Below, in pieces: positions 13,601 to 58,959 of a stretch of 64,000 nt of DNA. Numbering within the stretch: position 1 is the first letter of the stretch; the number at the start of each line of letters is the position of its first letter. Below the pieces are notes generated by a model. That model was not told the DNA's origin. It saw only the letters and a program-made list of their open reading frames with translations, and made no database searches. The stretch lies in contig JAZGQO010000002.1 in NCBI GenBank assembly GCA_036850965.1, positions 27,060,901 through 27,124,900 on the forward strand, given 5' to 3'. The position numbers and the translations under genes were made by a program. The stretch comes from Patella caerulea (Eukaryota).

Positions 13601-16600
13601 TATTTGCCCTCATGCAGAGACATTTTAGAGAAAGTCCACATGGTTAGGCAGGCAACCATACACAATGTCACATTGAACCACTTAGACACCCATTGCCCCC
13701 CAAACAGTAAGACACATTAGATTAAAAACTTGATTGTCCTGATTACAATTTATAGAGTAATAAGTACAATAGTACCTGCATTAATTGTGAAGCTTCTGGT
13801 ACAGTTTTAACACCATGTATATTCTGTATACACCATGTAACACACTCAGCTGATATAAAACAATTCTCTTGTATTCCAGGTTGTTTAGGTAGAAAACATA
13901 GACCATTTCTATTAAAACATATTTCACAATTATTTATAAATAAGGATTGTATTTACAAAATCCTCATAAGACTATATATAAACCATTTTAAGAGACTATA
14001 ATAGTAGAGTTTTAGACCTTTGTACCGAAGAATGTTGTCGTTGCTGGGCTTTGATCGTGTTTGCTCACCACACTATATTTATCAATTTTCAGCATTTTCC
14101 GAAATTATATCTCGATTATTGCCCTTATTATTGTAAAAAAAGGGACATTTTAACTTGTGATGTCAACTGGCAGATTATCCCCATTCACGAGACTGTCAAA
14201 GCTGGTTGCATTATTTCTATTAGATCTTCCTTGTAAATCATTTATTATTTTTCATTTTGAATTAAGCCTGTATCATTACAGGTCTGGGACTGTACAGTTG
14301 AGTGGGCACTTAAGGCTGGCCTCTTGATTCATTAATTTGATTTGATATTTGTTGTTTATTTCTTGTAATGTCTGTATAGTTTGTCTTGTCTTCAGGTTTG
14401 TCTTATTAGTTTTGTTTGTGTGTAATGTGGTCCTCCTGCACATTACAGTGTAAGCTTGCTGTCTATCGTGGACTGTTAGCAATTGTTGCAAATTACAATG
14501 AAAACAGGAGGTTTATCCACAGCAGATTTAAACCAAGTTTATATATTACAGTAACTAGCAGTCGAAAGGTCTGGGAAATATCTAACTAATAAATAGGATG
14601 TTTCTGATAATTGTAAATTGTATGAGAATAAAAAGAAAGATATGAAACTTACTGTAGATCCATCATAGCTTCTACTATTTTAACTGACGGTGAACTACAG
14701 GTGATTTCTTCTTTGTGTATATGTCTATAATATAAATTGTGATCTAGATGTACATGTATTTTACAATCAAATAACTTTTGTGGTCAGAGAGTTCACAAGG
14801 AAATTTAATAGGCTTCATTCTCTCACTAATCAAATTTGAACAAGTTAGATTTATATAATGATAACATTTGTCACTAGATTCTACAAAGACAACAAGTACA
14901 TGGTTTCTTTGTCTCATTCATCTAAACTCTAGCTGTAATTAATTGAAAAGGTTGAAATTCAATAGGCTTTTTTTTATAATTAACTAAATGATGTATACAA
15001 ATTTCAGGTTTATTGTATTTTCTTAATAAAGAATTCTATCAAGTGATCAAGGACAATAAGTCTAAAAGTGATTATTACAAATCAATGAATTCAAAAGGAT
15101 TCTTTGTCTAACTAAAAATTGCATACATATTTCAAGAAAATCGAATAATAACCTTTGTCACAATATTCTATAACGTGAGCAATAGCCATAACTGCAACAG
15201 TATTATAAAGCACAACTGTTGAAAGTTCATAAGACATGTTTTTCTTATTTACCTGAACAATGAAGATATATTTCAAGCTTGAAGTTATAATCAGTTAGAA
15301 ATTTCTGTAATTTAATAGGCTTTGTCTCACTAATTGTGAATAACATAGAAAAGATTGGAAAATAAATGAAGGCTGTAAGTGTTTCAGGGGGAAAAAGATA
15401 GATGTACGGACGGATGGACAGAACAGTTTCGATACAATTTTCTTCTATTACATGAATTACAAAGTTAAGTTAGAGAATTATATCTTACTTGTCATATTCA
15501 GGTTTATTAGGACTAGAATCAGGTGTTAGATTAACTCCTTCAGGTGGTAAATTCACCTAAAATAGATAAAATACAGATGTATCTGATCATTAAAACTAGT
15601 TTACAAAATTATCTTTAGTGCAATTCTACATCCATTATCCAGTGACGTATGTTGGAACATAATGTTTTGGGTAACAAATTTCATTTTCCTTTTTAATTAG
15701 GATAGGTTTGACAATTGATAATTATGTAATTAGAATTATGTCAAATTTGAACAGAATGACATTGATATCTGTATCAAACTTACTCGAGATTTTCTGGTTT
15801 GTTGTGGTCGTTTGATTTTATTGGCAACTTCTAAAAATCTTTGAAAACCAGAAATAAGTTGTTTTAATTCTGTTTGAGTCTTATCTTCATATACATCACA
15901 CCTAGAAAGTATAGAATATATTTCATGTAATACAGATGTTAAATATTTCCTAAGAATCTACTGGTCTAAATAATATTTCATATACCGGTACATCATATTT
16001 CAAGACATTTATTTCATCACATTGAAGGTATGTATGATTATCCAGTATTCATTTTTGATTGTCAGTAACATTTATCAGGTTGCCAATTCAATTGTTTTAT
16101 AGAGTTAACTTTCAACGCGGTTTAATTATTGAGACTGTTTTAATTTCTTATTTCTTTAGATAAAAAACTGTCATGCGCCTCTTTTTAAGTGACGCAGGAG
16201 TATCTGGTAACCAGAAGATTTTCTACTGAATTAAAAAGCTGTATCAAAGTACAGAAACAGTCAATTTAATACATGCAGATTAAAACATATTTATAACCTT
16301 CTTTTTAGCTTTGCATAACTACACTTAAACTAGCCTTTCTAAATACCAGGCAGCAGAAATCAGATCTTTGGTGAATTGATATCTCCTACATCACTTATTG
16401 ATGTAAAGTACTGAAAACACTATATTATATATTTATTTAAATTTGTTTGATTATGAATCTACTTCTGTAAGTTTATAAACAGATATCTACAAGGTATTTT
16501 TCTATAGCATGTGAACCTACCGTGAACTGCCCTCAATAATCTTCTTTGTAGCCGAATTATTACATGGCAGGAGGAAGAAACGACTTCTCCAAAACTTCAA

Positions 16601-25600: not shown

Positions 25601-28600
25601 ACAAACTACTGTCTGTATAATACTAACTGACAATTGAGTAATGATTGTACTTTTGTGTAGACCATCATTTCTAAAAGGGACTGACTTCAGTAAGCAACCA
25701 TTTTTGTCAATTGTTTTTACTGTTGGCTTAATATAATAACATATACCTGCAAAACTTCTTTAGTTGGTGTTGTCCATGAATTTTCTTCTTCTTCTTCTTG
25801 GTAACCATAACTCTTCATTATATTAGGTTGAACAGGAGTACCTTTCGGATCTGTTCAAAGATATATTCTCCCAATTATTTCATTTTATAATCATCATAAA
25901 AATAAACCAAAATATAGGTTGCCAGCAATAAAACATACACCCACAGTAGCTCCACAGCAGCTAAGTTCTCCAAGCTGCCAACAAGTTTAATCCTTGAGTG
26001 GCATATTATAGCGACTGAGCACATAAAAAAAACACAAAACAATTTCTATGGAAAATTATCTCTGGTTTATAGCACTTTTCTACAATTATTCTCTTACCAT
26101 TTTTAAGTACAAAATGAAATAAGGGTCTTAACTCTGGCAGTAATTAGGCTGTTTTGCATGATGACTTTGAACACTGTGTATAACTTTCAAGTCAATCGGA
26201 TAATGATTTTAATAATTTTATACTCTGGGGCATTCACAAGTTTTTTTCATAGTTATCAAGTACTCTGGCCGTAGTTATAGAAAATCATTGCAAATTAACA
26301 GGCTTCTTCATCTCATCACCATAAACACTGTGTATAAATCTAAAGTCGGACAGACAGGGGCAATGACAATATACGCCCACATTTCAATGTATGTTATGGT
26401 GTGTGAAATAGATGGACTCAAGATCAGTCATGCGGTGTACAAATAATGACTACAATAGACTTCACGAGCATTAAATGAGTAAAATATATCAGGAAAATAG
26501 ATGGACTCAAAATCATTGAACATAACGCTAACGCTACAATATACGTCCACATTCCTACTTTGATTGATATGGTACTTTGTCAAGAAGGCTAGGCGTTTGG
26601 TTTGTTTAGCGTTGAGGGTCGTGCACCAACATTAATAGTTGCCGTCCTTAGAGTATAAGGAATAACTATACCAAGATAATCCATTCAGAATTGTGCCTTC
26701 CTAACACTAAAGGCAAAAAGTGGGCGTGGCTCTGCCCCTGGGGGTCGGGACATTCATCAAAATCAATAGTGGACGCCCTCAGGCTATAAGGAATACATAA
26801 ACCAAATAGGTGTTGCTGTCCCATGGGGGTCGGGCATGCACCCAAAACAAAAGGGGTCATCCTTAGGGTATAAGGAATAAGTATTTTAAGTTTCAAGATG
26901 ACCGATTAAGAATTGTGGCCTGTAGGTGACACACAAAAAGAAAATGGGCGTGACTCTGCCCCTGGGGGTTGGGCATGCACCCCAAATGACAGAAATGTTC
27001 CTTAGGGTACAAAGCATAATCATTCAAAGTTTCAAGATGATACGTTAAGAAATGTGGCTTGTAGACGACAAACAAATAAATACAAGGAATGGGCGCGGCT
27101 CTGCCATTGGGGGTCGGGCATGCACCAAAAAACAATACGGATCATCCTTAGGGTAAGTAGACAAAGTTTTAAGAAAATACAGTTAGAATTGCGGCTTCTA
27201 GGCGACACAGAGACACACAAAAAGAAAATGGGCGTGGCTCTGCCCCTGGGGGGTTGGGCATGCACCCCAAACGATAGGGATCATCCTTAGAGTATAAAGA
27301 GTAAGTATACAAAGTTTTAAAGAAAATCCAATAAGAATTGCGGCCTGTAGGCGACACAAATACACACGATAAGAAAATGGGTGTGGCTCTGCCCCAGGGG
27401 GTTGGGCATGCACCCCAAATGATAGAGATGTTCCTTAGGGTACAAAGAATGTGTATGCTAAGTTTCAAAATTATAAGTTAAGAAATGTGGCCTGTAGACG
27501 ACAAACAAATACATACTAGAAATGGGCGTGGCTCTGTCCCTGGGGGTCGGGCATGCACCAAAAACAATAGAGATCTTCCATAGGGTATAAGGAATACGTA
27601 TACCAAGTATGAAGAAAATCCAGTAAGAATTGCGCCCTGTAGGCGACACAAAGACACACGAAAAGAAAATGGGCGTGGCTCTGCCCCTGGGGGTGGGGCA
27701 TACACCCCAAACGATAGGGATGTTCCTTAGGGTACAAAGAATGTGTATGCTAAGTTTCAAAATTATAAGTTAAGAAATGTGGCCTGCAGACGACAAACAA
27801 ATACATACTAGAAATGGGCGTGGCTCTGTCCCTGGGGGTCGGGCATGCACCAAAAACAATAGAGATCTTCCTTAGGGTATAAGGAATACGTATACCAAGT
27901 TTGAAGAAAATCCAGTAAGAATTGCGCCCTGTAGGCGACACAAAGACACACGAAAAGAAAATGGGCGTGGCTCTGCCCCTGGGGGTGGGACATACACCCC
28001 AAACGATAGGGATGTTCCTTAGGGTACAAAGAATGTGTATGCTAAGTTTCAAAATTATAAGTTAAGAAATGTGGCCTGTTGACGACAAACAAACAAATAC
28101 CAGAAATGGGCGTGGCTCAGCCCCTGGGGGTCGGGCATGCCCCAAAAACAATAGGGATCTTCCTTGGGGTATAAGGAATAAGTATACCAAGTTTGAAGAA
28201 AATCCATGAAGAATTGCGGCCTGTAGGCGAACCACAGACACACACACACAGACAGGGGCGACGGCATAATACATTCACATTATGAATGTGGACGTATAAA
28301 AATAAGTAAATTGCATAAATTAAATTGACTTAGAAATTATGTAGCCTAATGATCTCTTACAGTTAATTACAGTAGATATATAATATATATATATATATAT
28401 ATATGATACTGCTACCTTTAGGAAAAGCATGAACCCATCTTCTCATGTTAGCTGTCATTTTAAACTGCATTCGAGATGGAGCAAAAGGATTAATGAGCGC
28501 TCGTCGTGGACGATAATTAGCTAATGACTTTCTACTATGACCTATCGGAGATCCAGCACTTCCTACTACTAATCTATTAAACTGTATTTCTTCACTCTCA

Positions 28601-31600
28601 GACGATTCTGTTGATACACGACTCACTCCTCTTTCTGTAACAAAACCAATATAAAGCAATGATAACGGAAATAAATTATTTGACTTTTGCAGAAAAAGTC
28701 TCTTATAATTGAATTTTTTTTTATCGGCTTCAACTGAATAGCATTGAGGATTATAAATATGAATGTATTTTTTTATTTGAAACGAAAAGATGCAACGACT
28801 ACAGTGTAGTCACTACATTACCCATGCTTGGATGTAAACATTCAGCAGCAGATGTACCCATGGTAGGATGAAACATTACATGTAGGTCAAATATCAATAT
28901 TACCCATAATTAGATTACAATATTCAACAGCAGATGCACCCATGGTTAGGTTGAAACATTATTTTGCCTGATTACACTATTTTGCCTATACCGTTTTGGG
29001 GGGGGAATACTACCGGTGGTGTAGGCTATCAGTGATAGTACATGGCCAATCACGCTATTTTACCGAGACAGTTTGGATGCAGATATGGTGGGTGTTGGCG
29101 GTAGACTGGGTAAGCTTACTCTTCCGGACACCTGTTACCACTGTTTGTTGTGTATTTTGTACACGGTGAACAGTCCATTTGCTGATTATACTATTTTGCC
29201 TGAACTATTTTTTCGGACTTTGAATTTTGACTAATGGTTTGGATTGTTCGTACTTAGTTTTATTTAATGGTAGGGGAAAGTAACTATAGTATTACCCATG
29301 ATAGGATTTAAACATCCCATTGAAGAAGCCAAGTCATCACCAAAAGAACCTGGTGGTATGCAGATAGCTTGAGATGAAGATGCCACCTTAGTATTATTCA
29401 TAGCTCTCCCTGAAGCATAGATACCCTCAAAATCATCAGATCTATATCTAGACCTTGTTCTTCGACTAGCATGAACATCAGACTGACTTTTATCTTGAAG
29501 TTTGCGCCTATTGCTATGGTAAAAACTGGAACTTTTCCCCTGCCTTAAAAACAGAAAAACACATTCATTATTTACAGGAGATCTCATAAAATACTTAGAA
29601 TATCTGAATAAGGAGTCTAGGATAAAGAAAGGGATACCGATCTCCAGGATGCATGCAATATGATACAGTGAAAATCTGCAATGTGAAAAATCAGAGCGTG
29701 GTTTTATTTGCAGATCCAACTTCATCCAAAAAAATTTATTTGAAGCTTCTAGAAGGCTTGATATCTATACAATTTGAAATAGAAACTTTCTCCTTTACAG
29801 CAAACAAATAAAATTCCACAATTTGGTATCATATTTATAGTCTACTTAGCTTAATGTACCATAAATTATGTACAAAAAAATAATAATAAAAAAAACTTAC
29901 AACAAAGAACAACAGGTTTTATAATTTAAATCATTTGAATTATTTCATTATGGAGAAGAGATTTTTAACCATCGATAAATTTAGATAATTTTCCATGTAG
30001 AAGTTGCAAACACTTTTATGCACAAGCCATGGTATGCAACGTTCTTATATTATTGCTGTATTTTGTACCATAAAACAAACATTTATATAATCAGATTATC
30101 ATTCACCATAGTAAACAATACAATACAAATAAACAACATTCACAAGCTATTAATGTATCAAGCATATTAATAAAAGCCATAAAAGATGATTGTGAAATCT
30201 AATTACCGGTAGTAAATGATCTTACATCAACAACATATCTATCTTACAGATATCTTTTTTAATTGGAATTAAATTTTCATAAGAATCTCAATCCTAATGA
30301 TACCAGCATAGTACTGTAAATATATATTTTTCACTAGATTTTGTAACCTGCTTGTCTGACTAAACGATGTAAATGTGCTTTTGACCTCAGTTAAAAAATA
30401 AAGTCATGCTTGTGAACTGATTTTATTGAAATTCTGCTTCACAAGATTTGAGCATCTGCTGCACTTCAAGTGAGAGAGAGATTGGTTTTAACGTCCACTG
30501 GGTCAATAATTAGCTTGAGGTAGGGGTCTTCAGCTGTGTGAGGAAATTGATGGACCCAGAGAAAACCCACGCGATTTGACAGACGCCCCTATTGGTTGTC
30601 ATGTCAGACCCCATAATCTCAACGCATGCGTTAGACCATTCAGTCTACAAAGAAAGAGTCTGGTTTAGCTTTAGCTGTACAGATTGTCATAGTTTCCAAA
30701 ATGTGTAATATTCTAAAATTGATACCATCATATTTTGTGTGTATCAAACCATAATATGTTGGAAAGGCTCCATCAACCTGTACCTGACAGTTTCATCAAA
30801 ATATGTTTAGTCATAGAACTCGAAAAAAACAATTATTGATGGAACCAAAAATGATAATACCAGTCAATTTCCAGTTCCTTCATTCCAATTGAAAATAATC
30901 ACCAGGTTTGATATCTAACTGATGTAATGAAAGTGGTATACCTTTCACTTTTCTTCAATTAAGACAAGAATATAGTACCGGTATTCATACACGTTTAAAT
31001 ATTTAAAATAGCATTATGCAAGAGCAAAATCTGCTTTTTACAAGTCTTTCTTTAAGCCTGAGATGTTATCTAAATAATCAATTAGACATTAATTAACACA
31101 TCCAGACCATAATAAACTCGTTATGTCAAGGCTAGCCTTCGATGTTGGCAGATTGAAATCGTATATGCCGCTTAATGGCGGTTGATAATTAAATCAATCA
31201 AGTGGATAATCGAGACTACGCTGTTTATATTAATGATTTGAGTAATGATGACCGAGGCTATGAATATTTTAAATGCTTTTTTCTCGGCTAATAGTGAATC
31301 AATTTGACTGAAATTTTCAGCAAATTATCTTTACACTATCTAGTTTTTAACTATTATAGTGAGAACTGCCATCTCTTTATCTTATCTCCCATAATGTAAC
31401 TTTAAGCATTAATTAATAACGCTAGTGTGGAGTTTTAAATGTAATAATATTTTTCTAAAAATATCTATAATATAACAATTTAAGAAACTCTTGATCTTTT
31501 ATAAAATATATAGAGATACTGGTAAGAATTATATGGGTTTTGAGGGATTTTCTTCTGGGTGTTAAAATAATACATAATATTTTGAGAGGGTATACCAGAA

Positions 31601-34600
31601 AATTGCAAAGCTTATAAATTGACTTGTCTCTAGCTCTTTCATTTGTTACGCAAATAATGAAAACTTTACTTACACTTCCTCAATTTCATCTCTAGTAAAA
31701 AAAAATAAATTATAAAGAAAATGAAATGAGAGGTGAGTATAAGAAAATAATGAGATGATTATAATATTAATGAACTATAATAAATATTAACAATTATAAT
31801 ATGTAGGATGTTAATAATGTATTTATCTTTAACCTACACCAGTGAGGAGTGCGATTTTCTAATGAAGAATCCAAGTTCAGAGTTTCAACAGTATAGCTGC
31901 CAGACACCGTTTATTGTTTCTATACATTAGATGGATACACAATAAATTGTAAGTAATTAAAAGTTTATGATGCATTTGAACTTATATTCTAAATTATTTC
32001 AATATATAGATTTTTGGTACATACAAATAACCTAAATAGAAAGAAGTTTATTCAAAACCTAAAATTTCAATCGTGAATTGTAAATTATTACCATGTTTGT
32101 CACGAAATTGTTCAAGTCCAAACATTCAATGGGCATTTTGTCCAAACACTAGATAGTTACAGTCCGTTATAAGTTAATAAGTTATCAACTACATAATGAA
32201 ATTGAAGTGATTATAGATGATACAAGATGCAAGACAAACTAAACAAGAGTAAGCTACGTATAATATGCAAATTAGGACAAAAACATATACAAAAATACAT
32301 ATCAATAACAAACCCATTTAGTAAATATATACACAGCTTAAAAATAAGAAACTTACAGTGGTCTGGGATTGTTTCGAGACGGAAGTTTGAATACTTGAGC
32401 ATCATATTCATCATACTCCATAAATGGAAAGCTATCATCATCATCTTCAAAATTAGATGGTGTACGGCAAGCTGTAATAAACACAACAATTTACATATTA
32501 TATCTATTCATATTATAATTTTTCATTGCATCTATCCATATTATAATTTTTCATTGCATCTATTTAAAAGAAATGAAACTGTCTTTGGTTAAAGATTATA
32601 AAATGTAGTGATAATATTTCTACATGTTGAACGAGATGGAACATATACATTCTTTGTTATTTTGTTGGCGATGTTGAACAAAAGCAAATCAATGAAATCA
32701 GTCTATTAAGTTAGATGATTAAATACTACACCATTCCCATACACATGGACATTTAAAAGGAAAACATAGAATGAGTTATTGAATGACCAAATATTGAAGA
32801 CAAAAATCAGAAACATAGTTGGAATTTAAATATCCCTTAAAGTTAAAATTCCAGATTTATTTTAGTGAAAAACTCGCGGCTGCCATGCAGGATACACCCA
32901 CATTTTTGAGAGATGGATAGAGAGAGAAAGAAATGAGGTTTAGGTCCACTCAACACAAACTAGGTCATTTCAGGACTAACTTATGGTTTAATTTTATTTC
33001 AATAATTCGCTTGCGCGTAGGGGTCTTTAGCAGTGGGAGGAGACCGGAGTGCCCCAAAGAAACCCATGAGGTTGAGAAGCGCCCCTATCTCCATGTCACA
33101 TACGCTCACACCAGGGCTCGAAACCACACCAGCAAGCCAGAGGTGACCGGTCAGCTAGACGTCGAAGCGCGGCACTCTAGACCACTAGGCCATCCCAAAC
33201 CCCCCGAGAGATGGATAGAGAACAAGCTAAAAAGAGAGGTTTTTTTCCTACAATCAAGGGCTATAATTCATGAAGTTACAATTTGATATGCACAAATATC
33301 AAAAAGAACCAAGATCTTTGGGTTATAAACATGCATTTCAAGTTTCATCAAAATCGGTTCAAACTTGTGACCCCTATAGTGTTACAAGCAAAAACTTGAT
33401 CTTTCGTATAATCAGGGGCCATAATCCATAAAGTTACAGTCTGATACATGCCAATATCGAAAGGAACAGAGATCTTATGGTTATAAACCTATATTTTAGG
33501 TTTCATTGACATCAGATAAAGATAGGTTGCCAGGCAACGAAACATACGCCCACAACAGCTAAGTCGTCCGGGCAGTCAACAAGGGTTGTCGCATATTGTT
33601 TCTTTTATCAGTAAGGAGAACATTAAGTAATTATCAGAATTGATTAGAATAGTTTTGATGGTTTGTCTGAAGGCCTTTGTCCACAAGATATTTCAAAGTG
33701 ATCAAGCGTCAGAAATTATCAGATATCACTGAAAATCAAATAGGATTCTTCGTCTCATGACCCTAACCAAAGTGTACAAATTTAAAGTCAATCTGATATT
33801 AACTTTAGCCTTTAGAGCATTCATAGGGTTTTTCAAAGTGATCAAGGGTCATAACTCTGGTAGTAATTATCGGATATCGCTGAAAATAAATAGGCTATTT
33901 TTATCATGACCGTAAATAGTGTGTATAAATTTAAAGTCAATTGGATATTAACTTTAGATTTTTCAAAGTGATCAAGGATCATAACTCTGGCAGTAATTAT
34001 CTGATATTGCTGAAAATCAATCATGACTTTAAACACCGTGTATAAATTTAAATTCAATCGGATATTAACTTTAGCCTCTAGAGCGTTCACAAGATTTTTC
34101 AAAGTGATCAAGGGTCATAACTCGGGCAGGAATTATCCGATATTGCTGACAATCAACAGGCTTCTTCGTATCATGACCTTTAACACTGTGTATAAATCTA
34201 AAGTCAATCGGATATTAACTTTAGCCTCTAGAGCGTTCACAAGATTTTTCAAAGTGATCAAGGGTCATAACTCTGGTAGTAATTAACGGATATTGCTGAA
34301 AATCAATAGGCTTCTTCGTCTCATGACCTTAAACACTGTGTATAAATTTAAAGTCAATCGGATATTAACTTTAGCCTTTAAAGCGTTCACAAGATTTTTC
34401 AAAGTGATCAAGGGTCATAACTCTGGTAGTAATTATCGGATATCACTGAAAATCAATAGGCTTCTTTGCATCATGACTTTAAACACCGTGTATAAATTTA
34501 AATTCAATCGGATATTAACTTTAGCCTCTAGAGCGTTCACAAGATTTTTCAAAGTGATCAAGGGTCATAACTCGGGCAGGAATTATTGGATATTGCTGAA

Positions 34601-37600
34601 AATCAACAGGCTTCTTCGTATCATGACCTTACACACTGCGTATAAATTTAAAGTCAATTGGATATTAACTTTAGCCTCTAGAGCGATCACAAGATTTTTC
34701 AAAGTGATCAAGGGTCATAACTCTGGCAGTAATTATCAGATATCACCGAAAATCATTAGGCTTCTTCGTCTCATGACCTTAAACACTGTGTATAAATTTA
34801 AAGTCAATCGGATATTAACTATAGCCTCTAGAGCGTTCACAAGATTTTTCAAAGTGATCAAGGGTCATAACTCTGGTAGTAATTATCGGATATCGCTGAA
34901 AATCAATAGGCTTCTTTGCATAATGACTTTAAACACCATGTATAAATTTAAATTCAATCGGATATTAACTTTAGCCTCTAGAGCGTTCACAAGATTTTTC
35001 AAAGTGATCAAGGGTCATAACTCTGGTAGTAATTATCGGATATCACCGAAAATCAATAGGCTTCTTCGTCTCATGACCTTAAACACTGTGTATAAATTTA
35101 AAGTCAATCGGATATTAACTTTAGCCTCTAGAGCGTTCACAAGAAATTGTGGACGATGGACGGACGGACGGATGGGCGGACCGACGGACAGACGGACGGA
35201 CGGGGGCGACGGCAATATACGACCACATTTCCATGTGGGCGTATAAAAATTGTGACCTGTAGACTGTTCACAAACAATTGCGGATGGACGGACGTCCCGA
35301 CGAAACAGGGGCGACGACAATATAGAACCACATGAAAATGTGGGCGTATAAAAAGGATTGTTTCTGTGTGAAGGCTTCCAGAACACTTAATGCTACAATA
35401 AAAGTAAAAGCTCTATAATATATATTTAAAAGAAATAACAACTGTTAATGTTAGTTGTCTGGTGCAGTTTAGAAAATATCACTTGCCTATTTCTTCACAT
35501 TTTAAAGTTCACTTTGCTTTTTTAAAATGACGTTTTTCGAAAAGATCACTAGCCTATTTCTCCACATTTTGATGTTCACTTCTTTGCTTTTTTAAATGAC
35601 GTTTGCTTTTAAAGACTCAGTGAAAACTATGACCTTTCCTTTTTAAACATTAATCACTAACCTTTTAGTTTGGGTTTTTCTGCTAATAAATCTAACTGAA
35701 AATCAATGACAATCATGCATTAAAGAGTATGTTTAAGAATAATTAATACAGTGCAGCACTGGATGATTTTGGTTGGCACCACGATCCATTCACTTGATCT
35801 GATATTTATGGGGTTTTTTTAATGAAAGGTGTGGGGGGGTAATGTCCTACCGTTCTGCTCTGACTGAGTTAATGAAGATGGACTTATGCCGCACAATGTG
35901 CTATGAGAGAAATTTTGCACTATTGCCTACTCTTATATCAAATTCCAACTGCCAGGGGATCTTTTACGTGCATGACAATTTACACACAGACTTGGTTTTT
36001 CATCCCATCCCAATGAATAGAATGAACAGACAAGGGGAAATCACATCTGAAAATCACGATGAACTTTCTCGTGCAATGCAGGGATCAACCGCCCGACCTC
36101 TAGGCTAGAAAGCCAGCATGGCACCTACTTAGCCAGCGTGGTTCCAGATATGTATTTTGTTTATTGTAATTACTATTATGCTATTATAGACTTCTTACAG
36201 AGCATATTGTAGATTCAACTCTTTTACTTTCAATATCATCAAAATCAAATAAATTTTTATTAATATCTAACACTTACATATTCTTGTGGTGGTTTTATTC
36301 TTGGTATAAATGACATATTCTTGAAATTCTCAATTTGATTTTTTGAAATATAAAAACTGAAAAAAATCAAATTTGTATTAAACAACAACAGATAATTATC
36401 ACTTATTTATGGCTACAGAGTATATTCTAAACCAAAATATTCAAATGTTTTTTTTTGTTACAGTTACTTTTATTTAAACGGAATTTTACAAATGTGTGAG
36501 AGAATGGGTTTTAACGCCACTCAACACAAACTAGGTCACTTCAGGAATAACACGTGGTTCAATTTCATTTTAATAATTTGTTTGCCCATAGGGGTCTTTA
36601 GCAGTGGGAGGAAATCAGAGGACCCAGAGTAAACCCTTGAGGATTGACGGGTGACCCTACTCCTTGTCACATATACCAAGGTAATCAAAGCCACGCTATT
36701 TGACTCAATGACAGACTTTATGATACAGCATGCACAAGCTAACCATTGGGTCATCCCCCACTAACATTTCCATTTGTTTCAATTTGTTTTATGATACTTC
36801 GTTATTTTTGGTTTTAGATAATCCCCCCCGACACCCTTAATACTTTGAATAATGATCTAAAGAAAATTCATGATTGGTCCGAAAAGTGGAAGGTCGAATT
36901 CAACCCAGATAAAACTATCAGTCTTACATTTAGTAGAAAAAACAACCCAACCTTGCTTGTCGCTTCTTTTAATGATATCCCATTATATGACACAAATACC
37001 CATAAACATTTAGGTGTAATTTTTAACAAACATTGTAAGTGGGACAATCACGTGGATTATTTAATTAGTAAAACCTCAAACATGGTCGACTGTCTGAGAA
37101 GTTTGAAATATAGACTATCATGTAAGTCATTGAGTATTTTGTATAAATCTTTTATTCTTTCTATTTTTGATTACGCTTATATAGTCTGGAATAATACTAC
37201 TGAAATAAATTCGCAAAAATTAGAAAAGCTCCACTTGGATGCGTTACGAACGATAACCGGCCTGCCTCGTGGAACCTCCCATAATGCACATTATACTGAA
37301 TCCGGATTCTCATCTTTATCAGTGTGACATCAAGCTCATAAATTAACATTGTTTTATAAAATGGTAAATAACATAGCCCCCAGTTATCTTTGTTGTTTTA
37401 TCCCACCAATTATCTCTTCCAGCAACCCTTACAACCTACGTAACTCCAACCACATTACACAAATTAAATGTAAAACTAATATTTACAAAAACTCCTTTTT
37501 GCTGTCTGCAATAAAAGCGTGGAATAGTTTAGACAATGAAATAAAAAAAGCCTCGTCTGTCTCTGATTTTAAAACTAAACTGTATCCAACCTTATTTCCC

Positions 37601-40600
37601 AAAGTCAACAAACTGTTCTACTACGGTGAACGACAATTCCAAATTATCCACTGTAAACTACGTAATAATAAAAGTGATTTAAGATACCATAAGTTCCTCG
37701 ATGTGACTGTGATCTCGACCTAGAAACCACCGAACACTTTTTACTCTACTGTCCATACTACGCACTTCAGCGAAATAATACCATTAATTTATTACCAATG
37801 TATTTTAGAAATATCACTTGCCTACTCTATGGTAATGCCGAATTATCTTTAGACGTCAACAGCGATATTTTTAAATGTCTTTACAAATATATTAAAGATA
37901 CGAAACGTCTTACTCTGTAAAATACAACCTTGGGGTGAGGATTATGATTATAATTATTATTATTTTTTTATTCATTTTTTTATTATTTTTTTTTATTTCT
38001 TTTTTTATTCATTTTTTTAAAAAAAAAAAATTTATTTTTTTTATTTATTTATTTATTTTTTTATTTATTTATTTTTTTTAAATTAATTGATTTATTTTTC
38101 TTTTCCTTACTTTTTTATTATTATTCATTTTTTTTTCTATCATTTTTCTTATATATTTTTTTTTATTATTATTATTTTCTAATTATTTATTTATTTACTC
38201 AAAATTAAAATCTTATTTATTTGTTTAATTGTACCATAACTAAAACAAAAAATTAGTTTTTGTCTGTATCATATATAATTCGACATTGTACATGAATTAT
38301 ACACCCAAACCTGAAGGAAGCAAATTAATATAAGCCTACTTGACTTGTTTTTGTATCCTATTATTTATGCTCTTTTATACTGTATAATATTCTCGAAATA
38401 AATACTGTTTATACCAATTTGTTTTAGATCTCTAGAACAATTAAAATTTCTGATAGAGAAAATTCTAATATCTTAATTATCCTGACATATAACTGGCTGT
38501 CTATAATCAAGGTCAAAAAAGGTACATGGAAGTCAAATACACACCTAGAATACAATTTTCTAAAACCATGTATTTTGATATCAATGGAGTGACCATCGGA
38601 ATAAAGAGAATGTACATAACATGATATTTACCTATGATTCATCCAATGTGGTATATTATAATCATCTCCTATCTCAAATGTTGTCTGGGCATCTTTACTA
38701 TGGAACTGTTAAACAAAAATATACATATTCTAGTGTTTTGTACAGTATGAAACTTATTTCTTTGTTTAATGCAAGTGGATTGTCTACTGGAAGGTTTAAA
38801 GTCTGATGAGGAATTAATTAAATGTATTGAATTATATAACAGGAACATATACCTTAAATAGTGGTGCTGCATGCAATGGTTGTTCTCCCATACAAACTAA
38901 ATCACTTCCAACACCTTAAACATACATCATCAAATAATATTTACTCGGCTTACTAGTAATTTATACATCAAATAATAATATGCATACAATCATATGTAAT
39001 ATACTAATACATCATACATCAAATTACAATCTCTTCATAATATATATCATATATCAAATAACAGCAATATTTCTTTTGCTGACAATATAGAGGGCAAAAT
39101 ATTACCGATTTTTCAAAAAGGAAATTTAATAATTTACCTACCACAATCAATAGTACGTTGTTTAGTAATATTAGTTAATTCACGGTCAACTTCAAATACA
39201 CCTGGACCTGGTGTTATCACTACTGACACTTTACCTGTTCTATCAAAATTACGATCCATATAATGGGTCTCAAATACTAAAAAATAAATATAACCAACAT
39301 TTGAATTAGAATACTACTGAATAAAACAAAATACTTATAAAACATAAACCTGTATTATGATAATACAAATACCCATCTTTACGGGGCGATACTGTACACT
39401 ACCTGGGCACTACAATATAATATCTAACAATATAACCACAAATACACATTTTGTCTAGCTCATTATGTTTTTCATTTCATTAAACTGTTCAGAGTATATA
39501 AGCTGAATTTGGGATTATTAGGTGTTTCATGAATAAATCCTACGCCAGCAATACCATTTCTTAAAGAAAACAGACTGAAATATCAAATAATGACATGCCT
39601 ATTATCAATAAAATAAGACACAATAAAATTTTCAAAACTCTATTTTGTAGGGCTACTCCAAGTTTAAATGATTTATAATCAAAATGAACATACTTACAAT
39701 TTAAAGACATGTTTAGAGTTTCTAGAAAGTTGCCTTGAGCAGCTGTAGAGTTATATCCCATGGGTATATGTTTTCTGTTTTTACGATGATAATGTAAGAC
39801 ACGATCAGCATATTTATTAAAGAGAATGCGTAACTCTCGTAACGTATTTGACCATTCTTCATACATATATCTTTCATTCTGAACTACCACTCTGAAAAAT
39901 GTCAGTAAACATATTTTTACTAATAAACCATAACATATACTTATGGAACAACAATTACTGATTGAAAATGTTGAGAGAATACACTTTGAAACATCGCCTA
40001 AATAAATCAGTAATTGTTCTTCCATAAGAATTTGTTATAGTTTATTGTTCTATCCAGTTAATGAATGTCTCTAAAAGATCATATTTTTACACTGATGTCT
40101 TTGATATACAACATCATGAGTTAAAAAAAATACAAGCTGATAATTTCCCATAGTCATTACCTATAAAAATCTTCATATATTCTTCCTTTACAATCAGTTT
40201 GTAAACAATCTCGAATATGTTCTGGGAAATCATCTGAAAATAAAATGGAATAAGTTACTGTAATAAAATATCCATTAATTTGTGCTAATGTGTATACTCA
40301 TTTTTTCTTTGTTGACAACATACAGTTATAATAGTGATTGAAAACAGATGGCAAGTAATAACACTGATGCTATATTAAAAATGGAAGACAAACCCATAGA
40401 CTGTACATCATAGAATGTTCTGGAGAATAATACTATAGTAACATCATGACAACAATTTTGTTCCTGTAATAAAAATAAAAAGTCCATTTTTCATTTTATT
40501 TCATAAAGTATGTCTCATAAAGAGTTATATTTATACAGTCCCATGAAATTCTAATATCAAAACATAACTCTGGAAGTGACTATTGAATTAAGTTAATAAG

Positions 40601-42218
40601 GTTTCTTCTCCTGAATAAAGTAACCATTCCACAATAATTTATATATTTTAGAAAGATAGAACAATAATTGTAGCCTCAGGAGTACAGATTTGGTTGGCCG
40701 TCAGTATGACAGATCTATTGATGTACAATAAACCTACCTTCCATTTGAGAAATAGATCTGTAAGAAAACCATTAACAGCTTTTTCAAAATACAGATCTCC
40801 GCTAATATCAAAATCCCACATTTCAGATGACATCTGGATAAAAATTTGAACAACAGCTGTGGAAGAACGATAGACTACCTGAAAATATGACAAGCCAACA
40901 GTGAGGCTGATGGCCCCCCGCCGAAATCCCAAAATAAATAGATGACACATATTAATAAATCGCACATTTATTTTTTTCAAACGTATCGAGCAATCAAACT
41001 GTCCACAAAGTGTCATCCAAAAGAGTTTTAAAAAGAAAAATGCTAAAACCGACGAGAAAAATGAAAATGTACCCTAGTTAGGGGGACCAAAAAGGAAGAC
41101 AAAAGGGCCCCCACGCTTGACAAAAGGGCCCCTCTGGCCAAGGGAAAGGGCCCTCGTGTCCAAGTCAATCGTTTCTATACACTGTTACTGTCGAATCCAT
41201 CAATCATGATGAACCTAAGTTATCTTGTCCCAAAGTATCAACCAATCAAATTGCTTATCTCTGCTTAACCTTGGCGGAAAATGCCCATCTTCGAACTCCA
41301 TCAAGGCATTGATCTAATAAGCATATACACCAAGTTTGAACATTTTAACTCAATTAGAAGGAGAGTTATTGTGTTCCAAAGTCTCGACCAATCAAATTGC
41401 GTATCGCTCTGCTTACCCTGAGCAGAAAATGCTCATTATCGAACTTAGTCAAGGTATTACTGTAATGAAACTATACACCAAGTTTCATCACTCTCACTAA
41501 TTAGAAGTAAAGTTATCGTGTCTAAAAACATCAACCAATCAAATTGCTTATCTCTGCTTACCCTAAGCGGAAAATGCTCATCTTCGAACTCCATCAAGGC
41601 ATTGACCCAATATACACCAAGTTTGAACATTTTAACTCAATTAGAAGGAGAGTTATTGTGTTCCAAAGTCTCGACCAATCAAATTGCGTATCGCTCTGCT
41701 TACCCTGAGCAGAAAATGCTCATTATCAAACTTAGTCAAGGTATTACTGTAATGAAACTATACACCAAGTTTCATCAATCTCACTTAATTAGAACTAAAG
41801 TTATCTTGTCCCAAGGCATCAAGCAATCAAATTGCTTATCTCTGCTTACCCTAAGCGGAAAATGCTCATCTTCGAACTCCATCAAGGCATTGACCTAATA
41901 AGCATATACACTAAGTTTGAACATTTTAACTCAATTAGAAGGAGAGTTATTGTGTTCCAAAGTCTCGACCAATCAAATTGCGTATCGCTCTGCTTAGCAG
42001 AAAATGCTCATTATCGAACTTAGTCAAGGTATTACTGTAATGAAAGTTATCGTGTCCCAAAGCATCAACCAATCAAATTGCTTATCTCTGCTTACCCTAA
42101 GTGGAAAATGCTCATCTTCGAACTCCATCAAGGCATTGACCTAATAAACACATACACCAAGTTTGAACATTCTAGCTCAATTAGGAAGATAGTTATTGTG
42201 TCCCAAAAAGTGAGACGG

Positions 42219-42254
<36 letters not shown>

Positions 42255-45200
42255 ACCCATTTTAATAGTCCCCCAACTTTCTTCGAAAGGCAGGGGACAA
42301 AAAATCTAAATTACCATACACCATACAGTGAGCTGAACTATGGGGAATATTTTGCCTGTATAGCAATTAAATTCTGTTGTTTTTACATGCACGACACCAT
42401 GAACTATCCTGTCTGAACAACGAGACACGGTTCCTTGCTAGGCGCTTCATTCAGCACCACTCACATGGGGAAGAACATGCTGAAAAATCCTAGAAAACTA
42501 TCTCAGCCAACACTATGATCGAACCCTGGACATTTATAATGGTGACATATGTGATAATATATTTACCCTGGTTGTATCTGATATAACACCACATGTTACT
42601 TTCTCTCCTTTACTCCATAATTCAACTACTTCAGCTCTATAATCATACAAATTAATACAACAATATCGCCATTGTATAACGTTTTCAGCTAAAAATACAG
42701 TAGCAGTATCACATCTTCACTTTTGTACCCAGTCAAATTGGTACCATTAACCGGGGTTGGATGACCGAATGGTTAGCACAATCATGTCCGCTGTAACATA
42801 GGTTCTGCCATTGAGTCAACTGATGTGGTTTCGATTCCTGGGTTGTACCTTGGTATGGGTCCTCTGGTTTCCCCACACTGATAAAGATCCCTATGTGCAA
42901 GCGAATTATTGAAATAAAATTGAACCATAGTTTGTGTCTAGTGGACGTTCGAGTCCATTTCTCTTTCTCTCTGGTACCATTAACAAATACAGCTACCTTA
43001 ATTAGCCATGATACTGTCGCAAGTGTAATGGTTGGCACACAAATATAAATACAATATAATAGACTTAATAAATAGACATAATAATAAGTGAAAAAAGAAA
43101 AATATAAACAGTTGGGTGAATCATTAAAATTTTTAAAAAAGTGTCAAAAGACATGATCAATCAATCCTTGTCTACTATATACATATTACATTAGATTCAG
43201 TATAAAAACAAGAATGAAATAGATGCATAACCACCACGGTTTCACTCAAAACCCATATACAACAAACCACACCAACCTATTTGAACAAAGGCCAAATTCT
43301 CTAACAAGATCTAATTAATGTATCAATTATTACCTCATTTCTGTGTATTCCACCTTTTTATTCAAATAAACACATCCTCCAATCTGATAATCAATACATA
43401 TGTACAAATATTAATATCCCTCAAAGTAAATATATAATAGACATTTTCAGATTCATACACTGTTAATTATAACTGATACATAATTAATACGAGTTAGGAT
43501 ACTGTGTTGTATTATGACTATAGGTCACCATATATTTATCACCATAATTGTATTGCAATATGATTTCAATTACGATGAATTTACAGGTCACAAATTTAAT
43601 AAGTCAATAAGCATACCCAACTTTGATCAGGTCATTATTGCAGACAGGTGAATCATAATACATTGATTCAACAATTTATATTTTGTAATGTAGGCTCTTT
43701 GTTATCAATTATTTATTTCAACAGAGAGCTGATGCCTTTTTGTGTATCTATGGATGGACATAAAGTTATAATTTCTGAAGATCTTTTAAAACCAATGATA
43801 AAGAAGATTTAATTAGAGAGTTTTAACTACAGAATAACCCTATAAGTTGTTAGAATTTTAAAAACAGATGTATGTATGAATAATTGTGAAAACTTACCAG
43901 ACTTTTCCACATTCGATACATGTCACTTCTACTGAAATACTGCTCTTTAAACAATAACTCTACCAAATCTAATGACACATCCTATAATAGTCATATTCAT
44001 AGAAATCATTGCACTTAATATTTCCTACTGAAACGTTTGAATTTTCAAAAGGGTATTATCACTTAAACCAACAAAATAAATGGTTTTAAAGGGCATAATC
44101 ACTTTTACTAGTAAAACAAAACCAGTAAATTTGGTCAAAACAATTCAACTTTTAGTTTTTGGGGTTCAAGATGAATGAAAAAAAATGCACTCAATTCCTG
44201 CCTGTGATTTTTAGACAACATTTCAAATCTTTAATATTTGGAGCAAAAAGCTTTTGAAAAGAGCAACCAGATACTTTTTGTTTTAACATCTAGGATATAA
44301 GACTATCACTTCTAAGAACATTACAATACTGAGCGCCATAGAAAACGCATCACTTAGTTTTTCGTATAACAAAATGATCCTGTAAACATATCTTATTTAT
44401 TTTGCTTCTTATTGTGAACAATATTCAAATGGGAACACATCAATAACAACACATTTGTACACTTATGGATGTTTAATATGTAATCAACGGTACAAAGTCA
44501 GAGGGGTCAAAACCAAAAGTATTACAAAGATGGTTAATTGTCAGTTGCGCGTGTGTCCTCCACTGGCTCTTACGCACACTGTGCAGCACAATTAACAATC
44601 TTTGTCATGCTTTTGTTTGGGTTATGTACAGGAATATATTTGTAAATCATTATCAAATTCTTACCTTTGGATTAACTTTGCTCACATAAACATCTTTATT
44701 TTTCAGGTGAAAGGCAGCTGCAATTGACTGTTCAATACTGATGGCTTCTAAATAATTTTAATTATAAATAAAATCACATTATATGCGATAAGCTTATACA
44801 GTCCAGTTTAAAAATTGAGAAATAAAATATTTACCTTTCTTAATTACTTTATACAAGTTACCTGTTGTCCTCCATATTTAATTCGACACAAGTACTGTAT
44901 TTATGTGGTTAGGTTTTAATGAAATGTAACCTCCTACTTCCCTGCACCAACTAGACTAATATTAAAGATTGACGATCTGGCATACACAGGCAGAAACTGA
45001 CAAAGAGTACTTTAATGTGCATGCCAAAGTGTAATTAAATGGACCCTTGGTTTTTCGAACCATATTCTGAACTACTAGACAATCTCCTTACAAGACCCTC
45101 CCGTACTGCATGGCTGACATGGCATCGAAAGCAGGACCACCATGTTAACAAGCCAGCACCTTATCCTCTGAGTCACTGCGGCTCCGTGTGCTTAGGGACA

Positions 45201-48200
45201 TGCATACAAAACAAGACTCCACTGTCTAGCTACGAACAATTTATTTGTTTTAATGCTCAATTTCCCATAAGTTTATTGCATAGGATATTATTTGGCAAAT
45301 ATAAAGTTAGTCATATTTAACTTGTATTTAATTTGGTATTCTTGTATTACCTTTTTGTTGTGGACATTCATCTTTGACATCTTTAACCTGTTTGACTGGT
45401 TTAACTTGTAGGAGAAGACGACTGAAATCAGACGATAAAATAAAAGTTGAGTTAATATAAAGAAAAGTTGCCAGGCAACAACACATACCCCTACAGCAGT
45501 TAAAGCATTTGAGCAGTTGACAAGGGCTGTCTCATATTAATTGAGGCATTTACAAGACTATTTCAGACAGATTAGGTTATTTTCGTCATTTTTGGGTTCA
45601 CAAATTTCTACAAACTGAAACAACAGTCTCAATAATAGGCGTTTTTGTTTTACTTAATAATGCATTAAAATTTCAAATTTTAACCTGCTATTGTGCTGAT
45701 ATGTGAGGGAATTTTGGTAAGAAGTTGCAGACGATACTAAAAAATATGATATTCTGGAGTGTTGACTTGCACTCAATATTTGACTAAGTCACCTCAAATA
45801 TTAGTCATTTCAGAGGGGGATGGGGGGTGGAGAATAAGTGCATGGATATGCCATTATGATGCATTCAGTTATGCCAGTTATGAAACAAATAAGTATGAAA
45901 CGATATTTATTTTGAAATGAAATGAAGTGCGGTTTAACGTCCTTATCTGCATCTACTGGGCTAATATAGTTTGCCATCAGATGTCAGCACTACAGTCTAC
46001 TTTTATTTTGAATTACGGCTTTAAGAGGTACATTGGACCTTGTTTTTTCGCACCTTCCATTCTGAATCACTGACCAAAGGTAACCAACCAGGCATACCTA
46101 CTTATCTATTATAAACACCAGACATTCATTCCCCGTTCTCCATAGTTCACACACACACTTCGCATCTTACGGCCTTACGCTGTCTTGTTTGTGTTTGACC
46201 CCATCCCATTCTGTCGGACCTATGCATAAGGGTGGATACAGAACTTACCAAAAGGGGTGGGGTGGGGTGAGCCAAAAAAAAGTCCCCTCCAGGGTATCGA
46301 GAACAGCATCAAGATATGTAAGAAATGACAAACAGCCAATCTAGCCGGAACCAACTCAATAATAGTTGTATTTTAGGTCTTTGAAGTTTGATAATTACAA
46401 ATATAATGTTCGTGACAAATGATATTATATCTAATATAAGTCATCAAATTCTGTGTAATTGACACTAAGTTGTATCTATAAAAATTGCAAAAGTAGTATG
46501 TAAACGGCCAATAAAATTCCATTGAAACATGAAACACATTTTATGTTTATATATTACAATGACATGAAAAGCGGAGCTATGCGCCAACCAACCTAATTAA
46601 AAATGATAATAACATTTTCATCTTTGAGGTGATCGGCCTACGCCTGGAGGGCCAAACTCAATTTTGTTTTGGAGAATAATACTGCTTAATTTTGTGTTAA
46701 AAGCTCTTGAAATTCTACCTTAGGGCCAAGCAACTATATTTTGGAGAATAAAATTGTTTAATTTTGTGTGAAAAGCTATTAAAATCCTCTACATTTGGGC
46801 TGAGCAACTAATTAACTCAATATACATGATACGTTTTCAAACAACTTAAACCCGTCAGTTGTCATCCGGAAATGGAGACTGGTGTCTCATGCTGTGTCTG
46901 GATAAAACCAGACTTTTATTTTATAAAATAACGTATTGGTGAAATTTACCTCGGTCATACACTTTATAGACCTCTAAAGGAACAGCAATAGATTATCAGG
47001 TCATCCAACAAAACAAATTGGATGGAAATTTTAAAAGGGTCACGTATCTGCATAAGCGGTTTTGATTTTCATGCCAAAGGACTCAGTATTTCGAACTGAA
47101 ATTTTGAGACAAGGTAAATACATCATTCCTTAATATTTTGGTGCTTATATTTCATATGTACACGGTTGGTTTCTGAGACTGTGTTAAACAGACAAAAAAA
47201 ACATATTAATTCAAACAAAAACAATATTGTTTCACACAAGCTTCACAGAGTGAAACCCTTATATGTTTTATTGTCGCGACTCGCGAAACAAACAGAAGAA
47301 TTCTCCATCACTAAACATTTCTAACCAAATGCACACAATTTGTAAAGTACCTGTCTACCCTAAAGTGACTTGCAAGTGTTCCATTTAACGCAGGCTTAGT
47401 TGTAATGTTTACCTTCTGAGAAAGTGACAGTGTCAGAGAGCGAATGCGATATTTACGTGATATTTACAAGAGAGAATGTGATATTTACAAGATTTACAAG
47501 AGAGAATGTGATATTTACAAGAGAAAAACTTGATTTTATCGGATTTCTAGTCATTTAGGCTATGGGGAGAAATCAAAGGGATGAAAATCCAAGGTATGTC
47601 ACAAAGTTTTAGCCATTTTAATCAAAAAAAGGGCAAGCAATTTTCGAGTCGGAGTATCACCTGGAAAAGACAGTAATTTCAATCATGCATATAAATTCCA
47701 TAAATATCGGATGATAACTTTTTGCACTTTATATAGTCATCAGGAACCATTTTTCAATTTGGTAAGCCCAGGAGAAATGATATATATTATCCAATTCGAA
47801 AATAGCCTATGCCTTGCATCCTCCAAAAAAAGCTAATCAAATCATTTAGAAAGCTGATATTTGGGTAGAAATGTTACAATACAAATAATTGGGCTTTCAA
47901 TGACTGATCCCAACTGAGACACAAATGATATGTCAAGCTGGATAATTTTAAAACTACTTTAAAGCAAAATTTATATTTTTATCTTCAACAAAATGAAATA
48001 AGGTCCATAATTCTATACGAAATTAATGGAAATTGCTGAAATGCAATAAGATTCTTTGTTTCACTAATTTAAAGTAAATGAAGCATAATAACTTTATACA
48101 AATCGGACAATAACTTTTGTCATGAAACAAGAGTCATAACTCCGGAAGGAATTAACAGGAATGAATGAAATTAAAACTTTAGGTTTCTTCATGTCACTGA

Positions 48201-48634: not shown

Positions 48635-49349
48635 CTGAAATAAATAAAAGTGTTATGTTGTTAATTATGTCAAAAATCTCTCCCAAGGATAAGCACCAAG
48701 TCTGATACCCTTCACATAATATAAACAATAGAACTTCAGGTATGTGTTTAAAATGAAAGAGGGTTTAAAGTCCACTCAACACCAATAAAAGCGACTGTAC
48801 AATCAAATATCCCAAAGCATAAAATAGTGTATTTAAAAAATCAACCTATTTACTTGTAAATGTTGCGTACTTAGTTTTATCGAACTGCTGGGTGACTTTT
48901 TCACAGCAACTCAAATCTTGTATGGTGGGACTGACTACACATGTAAATTAAAGTTGCAATGTATTTGTCTCATCTCGCTGTTGAGTTTGGGCGGTTACAC
49001 ACATAAATTATTCATCTGTCTGCGTTCTGTAATTGCCATTTTTCCTCCTCTCTATTTTATCCGAGTTGGATGGGATGCTTTTCTTAGTTTTAGAGGCCTT
49101 TAAATTCACCTTTTAATAATATCTTTACATGGTCATGCTGGTATGTTGGCTATATGCACCCACCAAATAGACATTTTCAGACTTAAGGAATACGCCTGTT
49201 GAATGTTATGAAAACAGTTTTCTTTGGCTCAAAAGAAGGACAGAAATTTGGCAATCTACAGTAAAACTTTATTGTAAAATTTGTTTCAAAGACAAGGAAA
49301 GTTGACTGAATTCCTACTGTGCAATCAGTAGACTCGTGATCAATTGAAC

Positions 49350-58860: not shown

Positions 58861-58909
58861 CCCCCGCCCTTTCGAAGAAAGTTGGTGGACTATTAAAATG
58901 GGTTCGTCC

Positions 58910-58959
<50 letters not shown>

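Follow-up and report, generated by a model that had tools for sequence, protein, structure and literature searches.

What kind of unit has left similar blocks of tandem repeats with matching ends at separate places along one stretch of the Patella caerulea genome? The stretch analyzed here (the window) comprised 64,000 nt of contig JAZGQO010000002.1 (NCBI GenBank assembly GCA_036850965.1, positions 27,060,901–27,124,900 of the forward strand), an AT-rich (~33% GC) eukaryotic (animal) locus. The original prediction, made from the letters of this DNA, described transposons with terminal inverted repeats (TIRs) that carry satellites. In our analysis, the elements are very probably non-autonomous rolling-circle transposons of the Helentron type (Helentron-associated non-autonomous elements, HINEs), of the same kind as DINE-1, pearl, DTC84 and Cg_HINE. 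This assignment was made from sequence architecture, because each part of the elements occurs in the published definition of HINEs. Elements of this kind are known already from oysters, clams and insects (PMC7492417, PMC4067079, PMC3879986).

End motifs and anatomy of family A

The recurrence of a shared end motif beside ~145–150-bp arrays was real. Across the window, ATACGNCCACAT with at most one mismatch had 10 matches against 0.8 expected, a number reached by no shuffle, and eight of the ten were element ends (26371, 26541, 28286, 32892, 33544, 35217, 35233, and 35338). GGGGCGACGGCAATATACG with up to three mismatches was found at 26357, 28255, 35203, and 35308 (four matches, 0 expected). 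The palindrome GTTGCCAGGCAAC was exact at 33526 and 45467, the second being a site that the original prediction did not contain. GTCY runs had 47 matches against 0.4 expected, and almost all of them lay beside the left flanks of the elements. The arrays were located where they had been claimed: Tandem Repeats Finder (TRF) detected a 145/292-bp array at 26820–28243 and a 150-bp array at 34020–35144 (7.5 copies at 91%), which belong to the copies named A2 and A3, respectively.

The elements with these ends formed family A, which is represented by at least five copies (A0–A4) and one old remnant (A5). Read on the minus strand, an element begins with a run of four to five T, followed by a 12-bp 5′ subterminal inverted repeat (subTIR), ATACG(C/T)CCACAT, a 4–5-nt loop, an inverted copy of the subTIR that completes a hairpin, the conserved spacer ATTGCCGTCGCCCC, a (GTCY)n microsatellite and the tandem array. 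The array is followed by the 3′ subTIR (A)TGTGGGCGTAT, which is the complement of the 5′ motif, then by 5 nt, the palindrome GTTGCCTGGCAAC and 2–3 more bases before a T-rich flank. The 60-bp left flank was taken as TTTTTATACGCCCACATGGAAATGTGGTCGTATATTGCCGTCGCCCC and the right flank as TGTGGGCGTATGTTTCGTTGCCTGGCAAC. When all family A copies were aligned, the similarity started exactly at the T-run and ended a few nucleotides past the palindrome, and the sequences outside were unrelated. The complete copy A3 was organized as follows.

33524–35250, minus strand: A3, complete HINE-like element of 1727 bp, nested in A0; boundaries to ~1 nt from the alignment of its joined flanks
35203–35250, minus strand: A3 left flank; T-run 35245–35249, 5′ subTIR ATACGCCCACAT 35233–35244, 4-nt loop, inverted repeat ATGTGGTCGTAT 35217–35228, then the spacer; hairpin of −8.8 kcal/mol
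35150–35202, minus strand: A3 (GTCY)n microsatellite, (GGAC)n on the plus strand
33690–35144, minus strand: A3 central array, ~10 monomers of a 150-bp satellite (10 by nhmmer)
33524–33555, minus strand: A3 right flank; 3′ subTIR 33544–33554, 5-nt spacer, palindrome 33526–33538, CT

The original prediction also placed a tandem duplication of the 3′ terminus at 35315–35355. The second motif existed (35308–35354), but it represented the left end of an older element, A0, interrupted by A3. On the minus strand, this end continues into a microsatellite remnant and ~30 bp of monomer, and these reach the T-run of A3 without interruption. Beyond A3, from 33523 downward, there were ~2 monomers of a ~146-bp repeat, a 282-bp insertion, and a 3′ subTIR with a small stem (32880–32903). 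The joined flanks of A3 (33440–33523 plus 35251–35300) gave a gap-free alignment, over the junction, with the neighboring uninterrupted monomer. Because they restored a contiguous monomer, A3 was recognized as a discrete insertion into A0, and this insertion was not accompanied by a target-site duplication (TSD).

32868–35354, minus strand: A0, host HINE-like element split by A3 and by a putative short interspersed nuclear element (SINE)
35251–35354, minus strand: A0 left flank; 5′ subTIR 35338–35349, inverted repeat 35322–35333
33222–33523, minus strand: A0 monomers (~2)
32868–32907, minus strand: A0 right flank; 3′ subTIR 32892–32903, stem CTGC/GCAG 32880–32890

The 282-bp insertion within A0 (32924–33205) begins on the minus strand with a tRNA-like sequence, as judged by eye, and was likewise read by eye as a SINE. 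It is bounded by a perfect 16-bp TSD, GAGAGATGGATAGAGA (32908–32923 and 33206–33221), and related copies were found at 36503–36673, 42862–42929, 30503–30592, 4291–4410, and 1732–1806. Neither Rfam nor ARAGORN gave a match in the window, and the latter detected no tRNA at the tRNA-like end of this insertion.

The remaining copies of family A were older or less complete.

26520–28302, minus strand: A2, HINE-like element with a GC-rich 145-bp (292-bp dimer) satellite; 3′ terminus uncertain
28286–28297 and 26541–26552, minus strand: 5′ and 3′ subTIRs of A2, 12/12 complementary
25915–26398, minus strand: A1, short old HINE-like element with ~1.4 monomers of the 150-bp satellite; right flank 25917–25945, left flank decayed
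45463–48281, minus strand: A4; decayed left flank 48236–48281, ~2 150-bp monomers 47930–48235, right flank 45467–45495
14926–15419, minus strand: A5, degenerate remnant; two 150-bp-type monomers 14926–15189, (GTCC)3 15408–15419

The monomers of A1 were 72–75% identical to those of A3 by BLAST (nhmmer E = 8e-19 and 3e-15), and those of A5 were detected by nhmmer at E = 9e-5 and 1e-4. In A4, the monomers matched the A3 consensus (z = 13), and the right flank was 78% identical to that of A3 over 82 bp. Position 47930 had been regarded as the end of this element, but the matching palindrome end was found at 45467–45495; 2.4 kb of unrelated sequence separates the monomers from this right flank, and A4 is not proven to be a single element. 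The interval that separates A1 (left end) from A2 (right end) contains a direct repeat of 21 nt, AAATAGATGGACTCAARATCA (20/21), at 26406–26426 and 26495–26515, 89 bp apart. A supposed ~87-bp tandem unit at this place reduced to this direct repeat, and the surrounding sequence was otherwise dissimilar.

Some details of the predicted ends were only partly borne out. The motif was present at all four predicted ends, but those at 26340–26398 and 48236–48281 were decayed; each had lost one hairpin arm, and its fold was no better than shuffles. All elements were said to end with (GACA/GGAC)n, which was true of the (GGAC)n of A3, while the copy at 28240 carried (CA/GACA)n and that at 48230 almost none. 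The inverted complement expected at the other end, after a palindrome, was perfect in A2, but A2 lacked the GGTTGCC palindrome.

Could the arrays and their conserved junctions have been copied locally, through segmental or tandem duplication, without any mobility? The clustering of copies (A1 and A2 adjacent, A0 and A3 contiguous) and the single orientation of the intronic copies would agree with that. It is nevertheless extremely improbable, since the similarity ends abruptly at defined ends within unrelated flanks, the copies extend over 50 kb and are interleaved with exons, A3 was inserted precisely into another copy, and B3, a copy of the second family described below, lies on the opposite strand. 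The sharp boundaries, the unrelated flanks and the clean nested insertion all agreed with the predicted non-autonomous mobile family that spreads satellites.

The two ends were matched in sequence. The subTIRs paired at 12/12 positions in A2, 11/11 in A3, 11/12 in A0, and 11/11 in B3, and they were decayed in A1 and A4. The subTIRs of A2 (ATACGTCCACAT and ATGTGGACGTAT) were perfectly complementary and shared a private C>T/G>A change that distinguishes them from those of A3 and A0, which is the kind of covariation expected where both ends must match. A T-run was present at every 5′ end, and the right flanks fell into two subtypes (A1/A3/A4 and A0/A2). DNA hairpin folds were scored against dinucleotide shuffles. 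The 5′ left-flank hairpins of intact copies gave z = −3.1 in A3, −3.2 in A0, −2.75 in A2, and −2.7 in B2. The 3′ palindrome was exact (GTTGCCWGGCAAC) in A3 and A4, contained one indel in A1, and took the forms CTGC/GCAG in A0 and AGCC/GGCT in family B. The decayed subTIR variants (32892–32903, 25935–25945, and 48265–48276) showed CpG>CpA/TpG changes relative to the intact ATACGCCCACA, giving ATACACCCACA, a pattern that would fit the decay of CpG sites in a gene body subject to methylation.

The "terminal palindrome" of the original prediction consists of the 5′ subTIR and an internal inverted repeat, and its orientation was reversed: in the HINE convention, the microsatellite end is 5′ (left) and the GGTTGCC-palindrome end is 3′. 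Its view and orientation correspond to the older description of pearl and DTC84 as miniature inverted-repeat transposable elements, or MITEs (PMC3879986). According to that cut-and-paste model, a DDE transposase binds short inverted repeats and duplicates its target, with AA as the TSD. The 11–12-bp inverted repeats at the element ends are compatible with it, as is the T-run at the start of every copy, which is an A-run on the opposite strand, and bivalve elements of equivalent structure were originally published as MITEs, with AA as their putative TSD (PMC3879986). A MITE is highly improbable, however. The repeats lie subterminally and the two ends differ in structure (a hairpin on one side, a subTIR plus a different palindrome on the other), and flank duplication was absent at four insertions (A3 and the family B copies B1–B3, whose flanks were unrelated). 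Since every copy contains the conserved T-run within its boundaries, this run belongs to the element and is not a duplicated target. The same architecture was also reassigned to Helentrons after autonomous partners had been found (PMC4067079). Because the repeats are subterminal rather than classic TIRs and a TSD was not seen, the Helentron type was preferred.

A second family and the satellite cargo

Three copies of another family, B, had the same plan with a different sequence and different ends. They start with a T-run and TGTCCCCCGCC, followed by an internal CTTTC/GAAAG stem, GGGGGAC, (GTCT)n and 146-bp monomers arranged in 294-bp dimers; on the right side, GGCGGGGGACA precedes AGCC...GGCT and TGT(T). 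The inverted repeat of family B lies 15 nt from its subTIR, compared with the 4–5-nt loop of family A.

8871–10090, minus strand: B1; 3′ subTIR 8893–8903, stem AGCC/GGCT 8875–8890, 146/294-bp array 9239–9991, (GTCT)n 9997–10044, left-flank hairpin 10050–10090
40890–42305, minus strand: B2; array 41217–42205, (GTCT)n 42213–42256, 5′ subTIR 42289–42299
58853–60720, plus strand: B3, upstream of the DEPDC5 gene; perfect 11-bp subTIRs 58858–58868 and 60688–60698, (GTCT)18 58906–58977, ~11 monomers 58987–60642

TRF detected the 146/294-bp arrays at 9238–9991, 41217–42045, and 58987–60589, and each of them adjoined a (GACA)n/(GTCT)n tract. The flanks were 91–95% identical among B1–B3, yet the copies contained ~5, 6, and 11 monomers, respectively. 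This indicated that the array length changes after or during dispersal.

The original prediction stated that one terminal scaffold carries two different satellites; comparison of the cargo bore out the principle and raised the number to three. The 150-bp satellite was carried by A1, A3, A4, and the remnant A5, the GC-rich 145-bp repeat in 292-bp dimers by A2, and a third repeat of ~146 bp by A0. By strict local alignment, these three repeats were unrelated. With permissive scoring, the A0 repeat resembled those of A3 (z = 5.2) and A2 (z = 4.8), while nhmmer recovered a weak link between A2 and A0 only (E = 0.003) and none between A3 and A0. A shared origin of the repeats is therefore left unproven. 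The A0 monomer may bridge the satellites of A2 and A3; if so, this would suggest divergence of the repeat in situ and not the capture of unrelated repeats. The 145/146-bp monomers of A2 and family B were arranged in ~292-bp dimers, with 85–94% identity at the dimer period and 74–77% at the monomer period.

Comparison with known Helentron derivatives

The published definition of HINEs comprises 11–13-bp subTIRs, an inverted repeat 1–22 bp from the 5′ subTIR and central repeats of 140–180 bp (PMC7492417, PMC4067079). Eleven Cg_HINE elements were described in Crassostrea gigas, where they insert into T-rich sites without a TSD and often reside in introns (Vojvoda Zeljko et al., 2020; PMC7492417). 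Their left flank has an 11–12-bp 5′ subTIR, a complementary inverted repeat 1–12 bp away and a GTCY/GTCC/GTCK microsatellite; the center contains satellite-like arrays of 2–11 monomers of ~140–180 bp in one orientation, and the right flank a 3′ subTIR and a palindrome. Cg_HINE_3 and Cg_HINE_6 have flanks in common and unrelated repeats (PMC7492417), so such modular cargo was already reported. The window elements have the same layout, including shared flanks with unrelated repeats, but this likeness is one of architecture. Their monomers are not similar to Cg170/CL1, and the inverted repeat of family B stands at 15 nt from the subTIR rather than 1–12 bp. A box in the A2 monomer, CCCCTGGGGGTCGGG, was compared with Cg170, and the similarity was not significant (z = 1.8). 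In supplementary data to the papers on the C. gigas HINEs and satellitome, and in the full texts, a search for monomer and end strings of the window yielded unrelated primer matches only.

The DINE-1/HINE elements of Drosophila, mosquito and mite were traced to autonomous Helentrons that encode Rep/helicase/endonuclease (Thomas et al., 2014; PMC4067079). As in the window, they possess subTIRs (13-bp there) with an inverted repeat nested at the one on the 5′ side, a microsatellite, central repeats and T-runs at the boundaries, and they have no coding capacity; a 3′ stem-loop and a TT target also belong to their description. Their sequences differ from those found here, their 3′ palindrome lies 8–35 nt from the terminus instead of 2–12 nt, and an autonomous partner is known for them but none was found within this window. 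In pearl of Crassostrea virginica and DTC84 of Donax trunculus, the core repeats are followed by (ACGG)n, a permutation of GGAC, whose reverse complement is GTCC (PMC3879986). The subterminal 11-bp inverted motif at one end, the A-run/T-run termini and the variable monomer number also have counterparts here. Their AA was read as a TSD and they were classed as MITEs, whereas here the T-run belongs to the element and a TSD was not seen; the only counterparts here to the ordered monomer variants of DTC84 are the dimeric 292-bp higher-order units. The MITE-like elements of Lepidoptera (Coates et al., 2011), as far as they are described in two later papers (PMC4067079, PMC3879986), have a hitchhiking (GTCY)n beside an inverted-repeat flank, as in the window. 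According to the same papers, they were later regarded as HINE-like, and the likeness is one of description.

A non-autonomous canonical Helitron (Helitron1 type) would have 5′-TC...CTRR-3′ ends and a 3′ hairpin and would be inserted between A and T. The sole empty site, that of A3, reads CACAA^TCTTT and thus A^T without an indel, and the oyster equivalents carry the Repbase name "Helitron-N" (PMC7492417 Table S4). The ends are of another kind, however: family A has T5-ATACG... and ...GGCAACCT(A), and family B has TTGTCCCC... and ...GGCTTGT(T). Most junctions fit T^T, and the subterminal inverted repeats together with the 5′ inverted repeat define Helentrons/HINEs and do not occur in canonical Helitrons (PMC4067079). 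A canonical Helitron is thus very unlikely.

Several observations nevertheless weigh against the Helentron assignment. The A3 empty site fits T^T only with a 1-nt indel and otherwise A^T, so that the target dinucleotide, judged from a single paralogous empty site, is not fixed. The 3′ palindromes have 4–6-bp stems that are individually no better than shuffles; A2 has no convincing 3′ palindrome, and its right-flank fold was not significant. No Rep/helicase gene was found among the open reading frames (ORFs) and Pfam matches of the window. Scans of JGI metagenomes and IMG/VR with the left-flank pattern yielded a single match, which was at chance level in a bacterial coding region. To our knowledge, Helentron transposition has not been reconstituted experimentally, and the mechanism proposed below extends that of canonical Helitrons and HUH enzymes.

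If the elements are HINEs, the Rep (HUH)/helicase(/endonuclease) of an autonomous Helentron located at another place in the genome would recognize the 5′ T-run and hairpin and the 3′ subTIR and palindrome. Mobilization of the DNA between the recognized ends would proceed through an intermediate, either single-stranded or circular, and re-insertion would take place at T-rich (T^T) sites with no TSD. We infer the Rep/helicase dependence and the rolling-circle intermediate from the family assignment. The microsatellite and the satellite array would be passengers, and the array length would drift via slippage or unequal exchange, apparently in dimer steps; such drift is proposed as the reason why the monomer number differs within one family.

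The DEPDC5 locus and the orientation of its elements

Stop-free, exon-like segments on the minus strand matched DEPDC5/IML1 domains in gene order, and the region of ~1.2–48.8 kb (1243–48764) is on this basis a minus-strand DEPDC5 gene. DEPDC5 is a subunit of GATOR1. In the protein collection searched with the last exon, the top match, to exon-level ORFs, was 64% identical, so that the source species is not represented there. Because the gene spans ~1.2–48.8 kb, nearly all of the elements treated here are intronic.

48519–48764, minus strand: IML1_N, Pfam match in a stop-free exon-like segment
39561–40025, minus strand: IML1, Pfam match in a stop-free exon-like segment
1243–1752, minus strand: DEPDC5_CTD, Pfam match in a stop-free exon-like segment

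The elements themselves were non-coding. Their longest frame reads in phase through the 150-bp monomers and has a sub-threshold Pfam match only. This 317-aa ORF across the 150-bp array was rejected as coding, since no Pfam family exceeded the threshold; its phase is preserved because 150 is divisible by 3, and upstream monomers with indels disrupt the frame. Outside the arrays, no stop-free frame exceeded 170 aa except a 238-aa frame that leaves the right edge (63285–63998) and has no Pfam match. This frame follows 56-bp tandem repeats at 62730–62905, and the region 62490–63998 may be the start of a long terminal repeat (LTR) retrotransposon. Two further open frames, at 36818–37720 (plus strand) and 56755–57093 (minus strand), resembled by eye the C-terminal portion of a reverse transcriptase of the non-LTR retrotransposon type, and Pfam gave nothing for either at E ≤ 0.01.

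All eight copies and remnants inside the DEPDC5 unit (A0–A5, B1, and B2; 8871–48281) read from left to right flank on the sense strand, and the sole copy outside the gene, B3, was on the opposite strand. A DEPDC5-bearing contig of another organism (L001; 56% identity over an exon) contained four intronic HINE-like elements at 2975–8920, all in the sense orientation (4/4). Their plan, TTTTTATGCCCCCGG...CGGGGGCAT-(GTCT)n-monomer-GCCGGGGGGCAT-GTGTTTCACAAACAC, is the same as in the window and argues for the HINE assignment. In three further DEPDC5 loci, no HINE-like elements were found. The co-orientation of 12/12 intronic copies is unlikely to be due to chance, but the sample represents one gene, and some of the insertions are nested or adjacent. 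An asymmetry of poly(A) or splice-site motifs was rejected as the cause, since the counts did not differ between the strands. That Helentron-type elements integrate, or are retained, strand-specifically relative to host transcription would explain the pattern, although we consider this unlikely. It would matter only if it held genome-wide; in that case, it would mean single-strand-directed integration, as with bacterial HUH transposases, in a eukaryotic rolling-circle transposon.

Downstream of DEPDC5 on contig L001 (18300–19170), another HINE-like element was observed; its hairpin is CCGGGAC/GTCCGGG, and it also has a GC-rich tract that resembles a microsatellite and five monomers of 146 bp at 93%. 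An impression by eye that the window satellites are homologous to those of L001, including the satellite of this element, was not supported by nhmmer.

The value of these results lies mainly in annotation, as HINE cargo can account for most of the tandem repeats and microsatellites at the locus. The locus provides clean examples of a nested HINE insertion without a TSD, of a compensatory change in the subTIRs and of one scaffold with three satellites. These results support, and do not change, the current view of Helentron derivatives as elements by which satellite DNA is seeded and spread.

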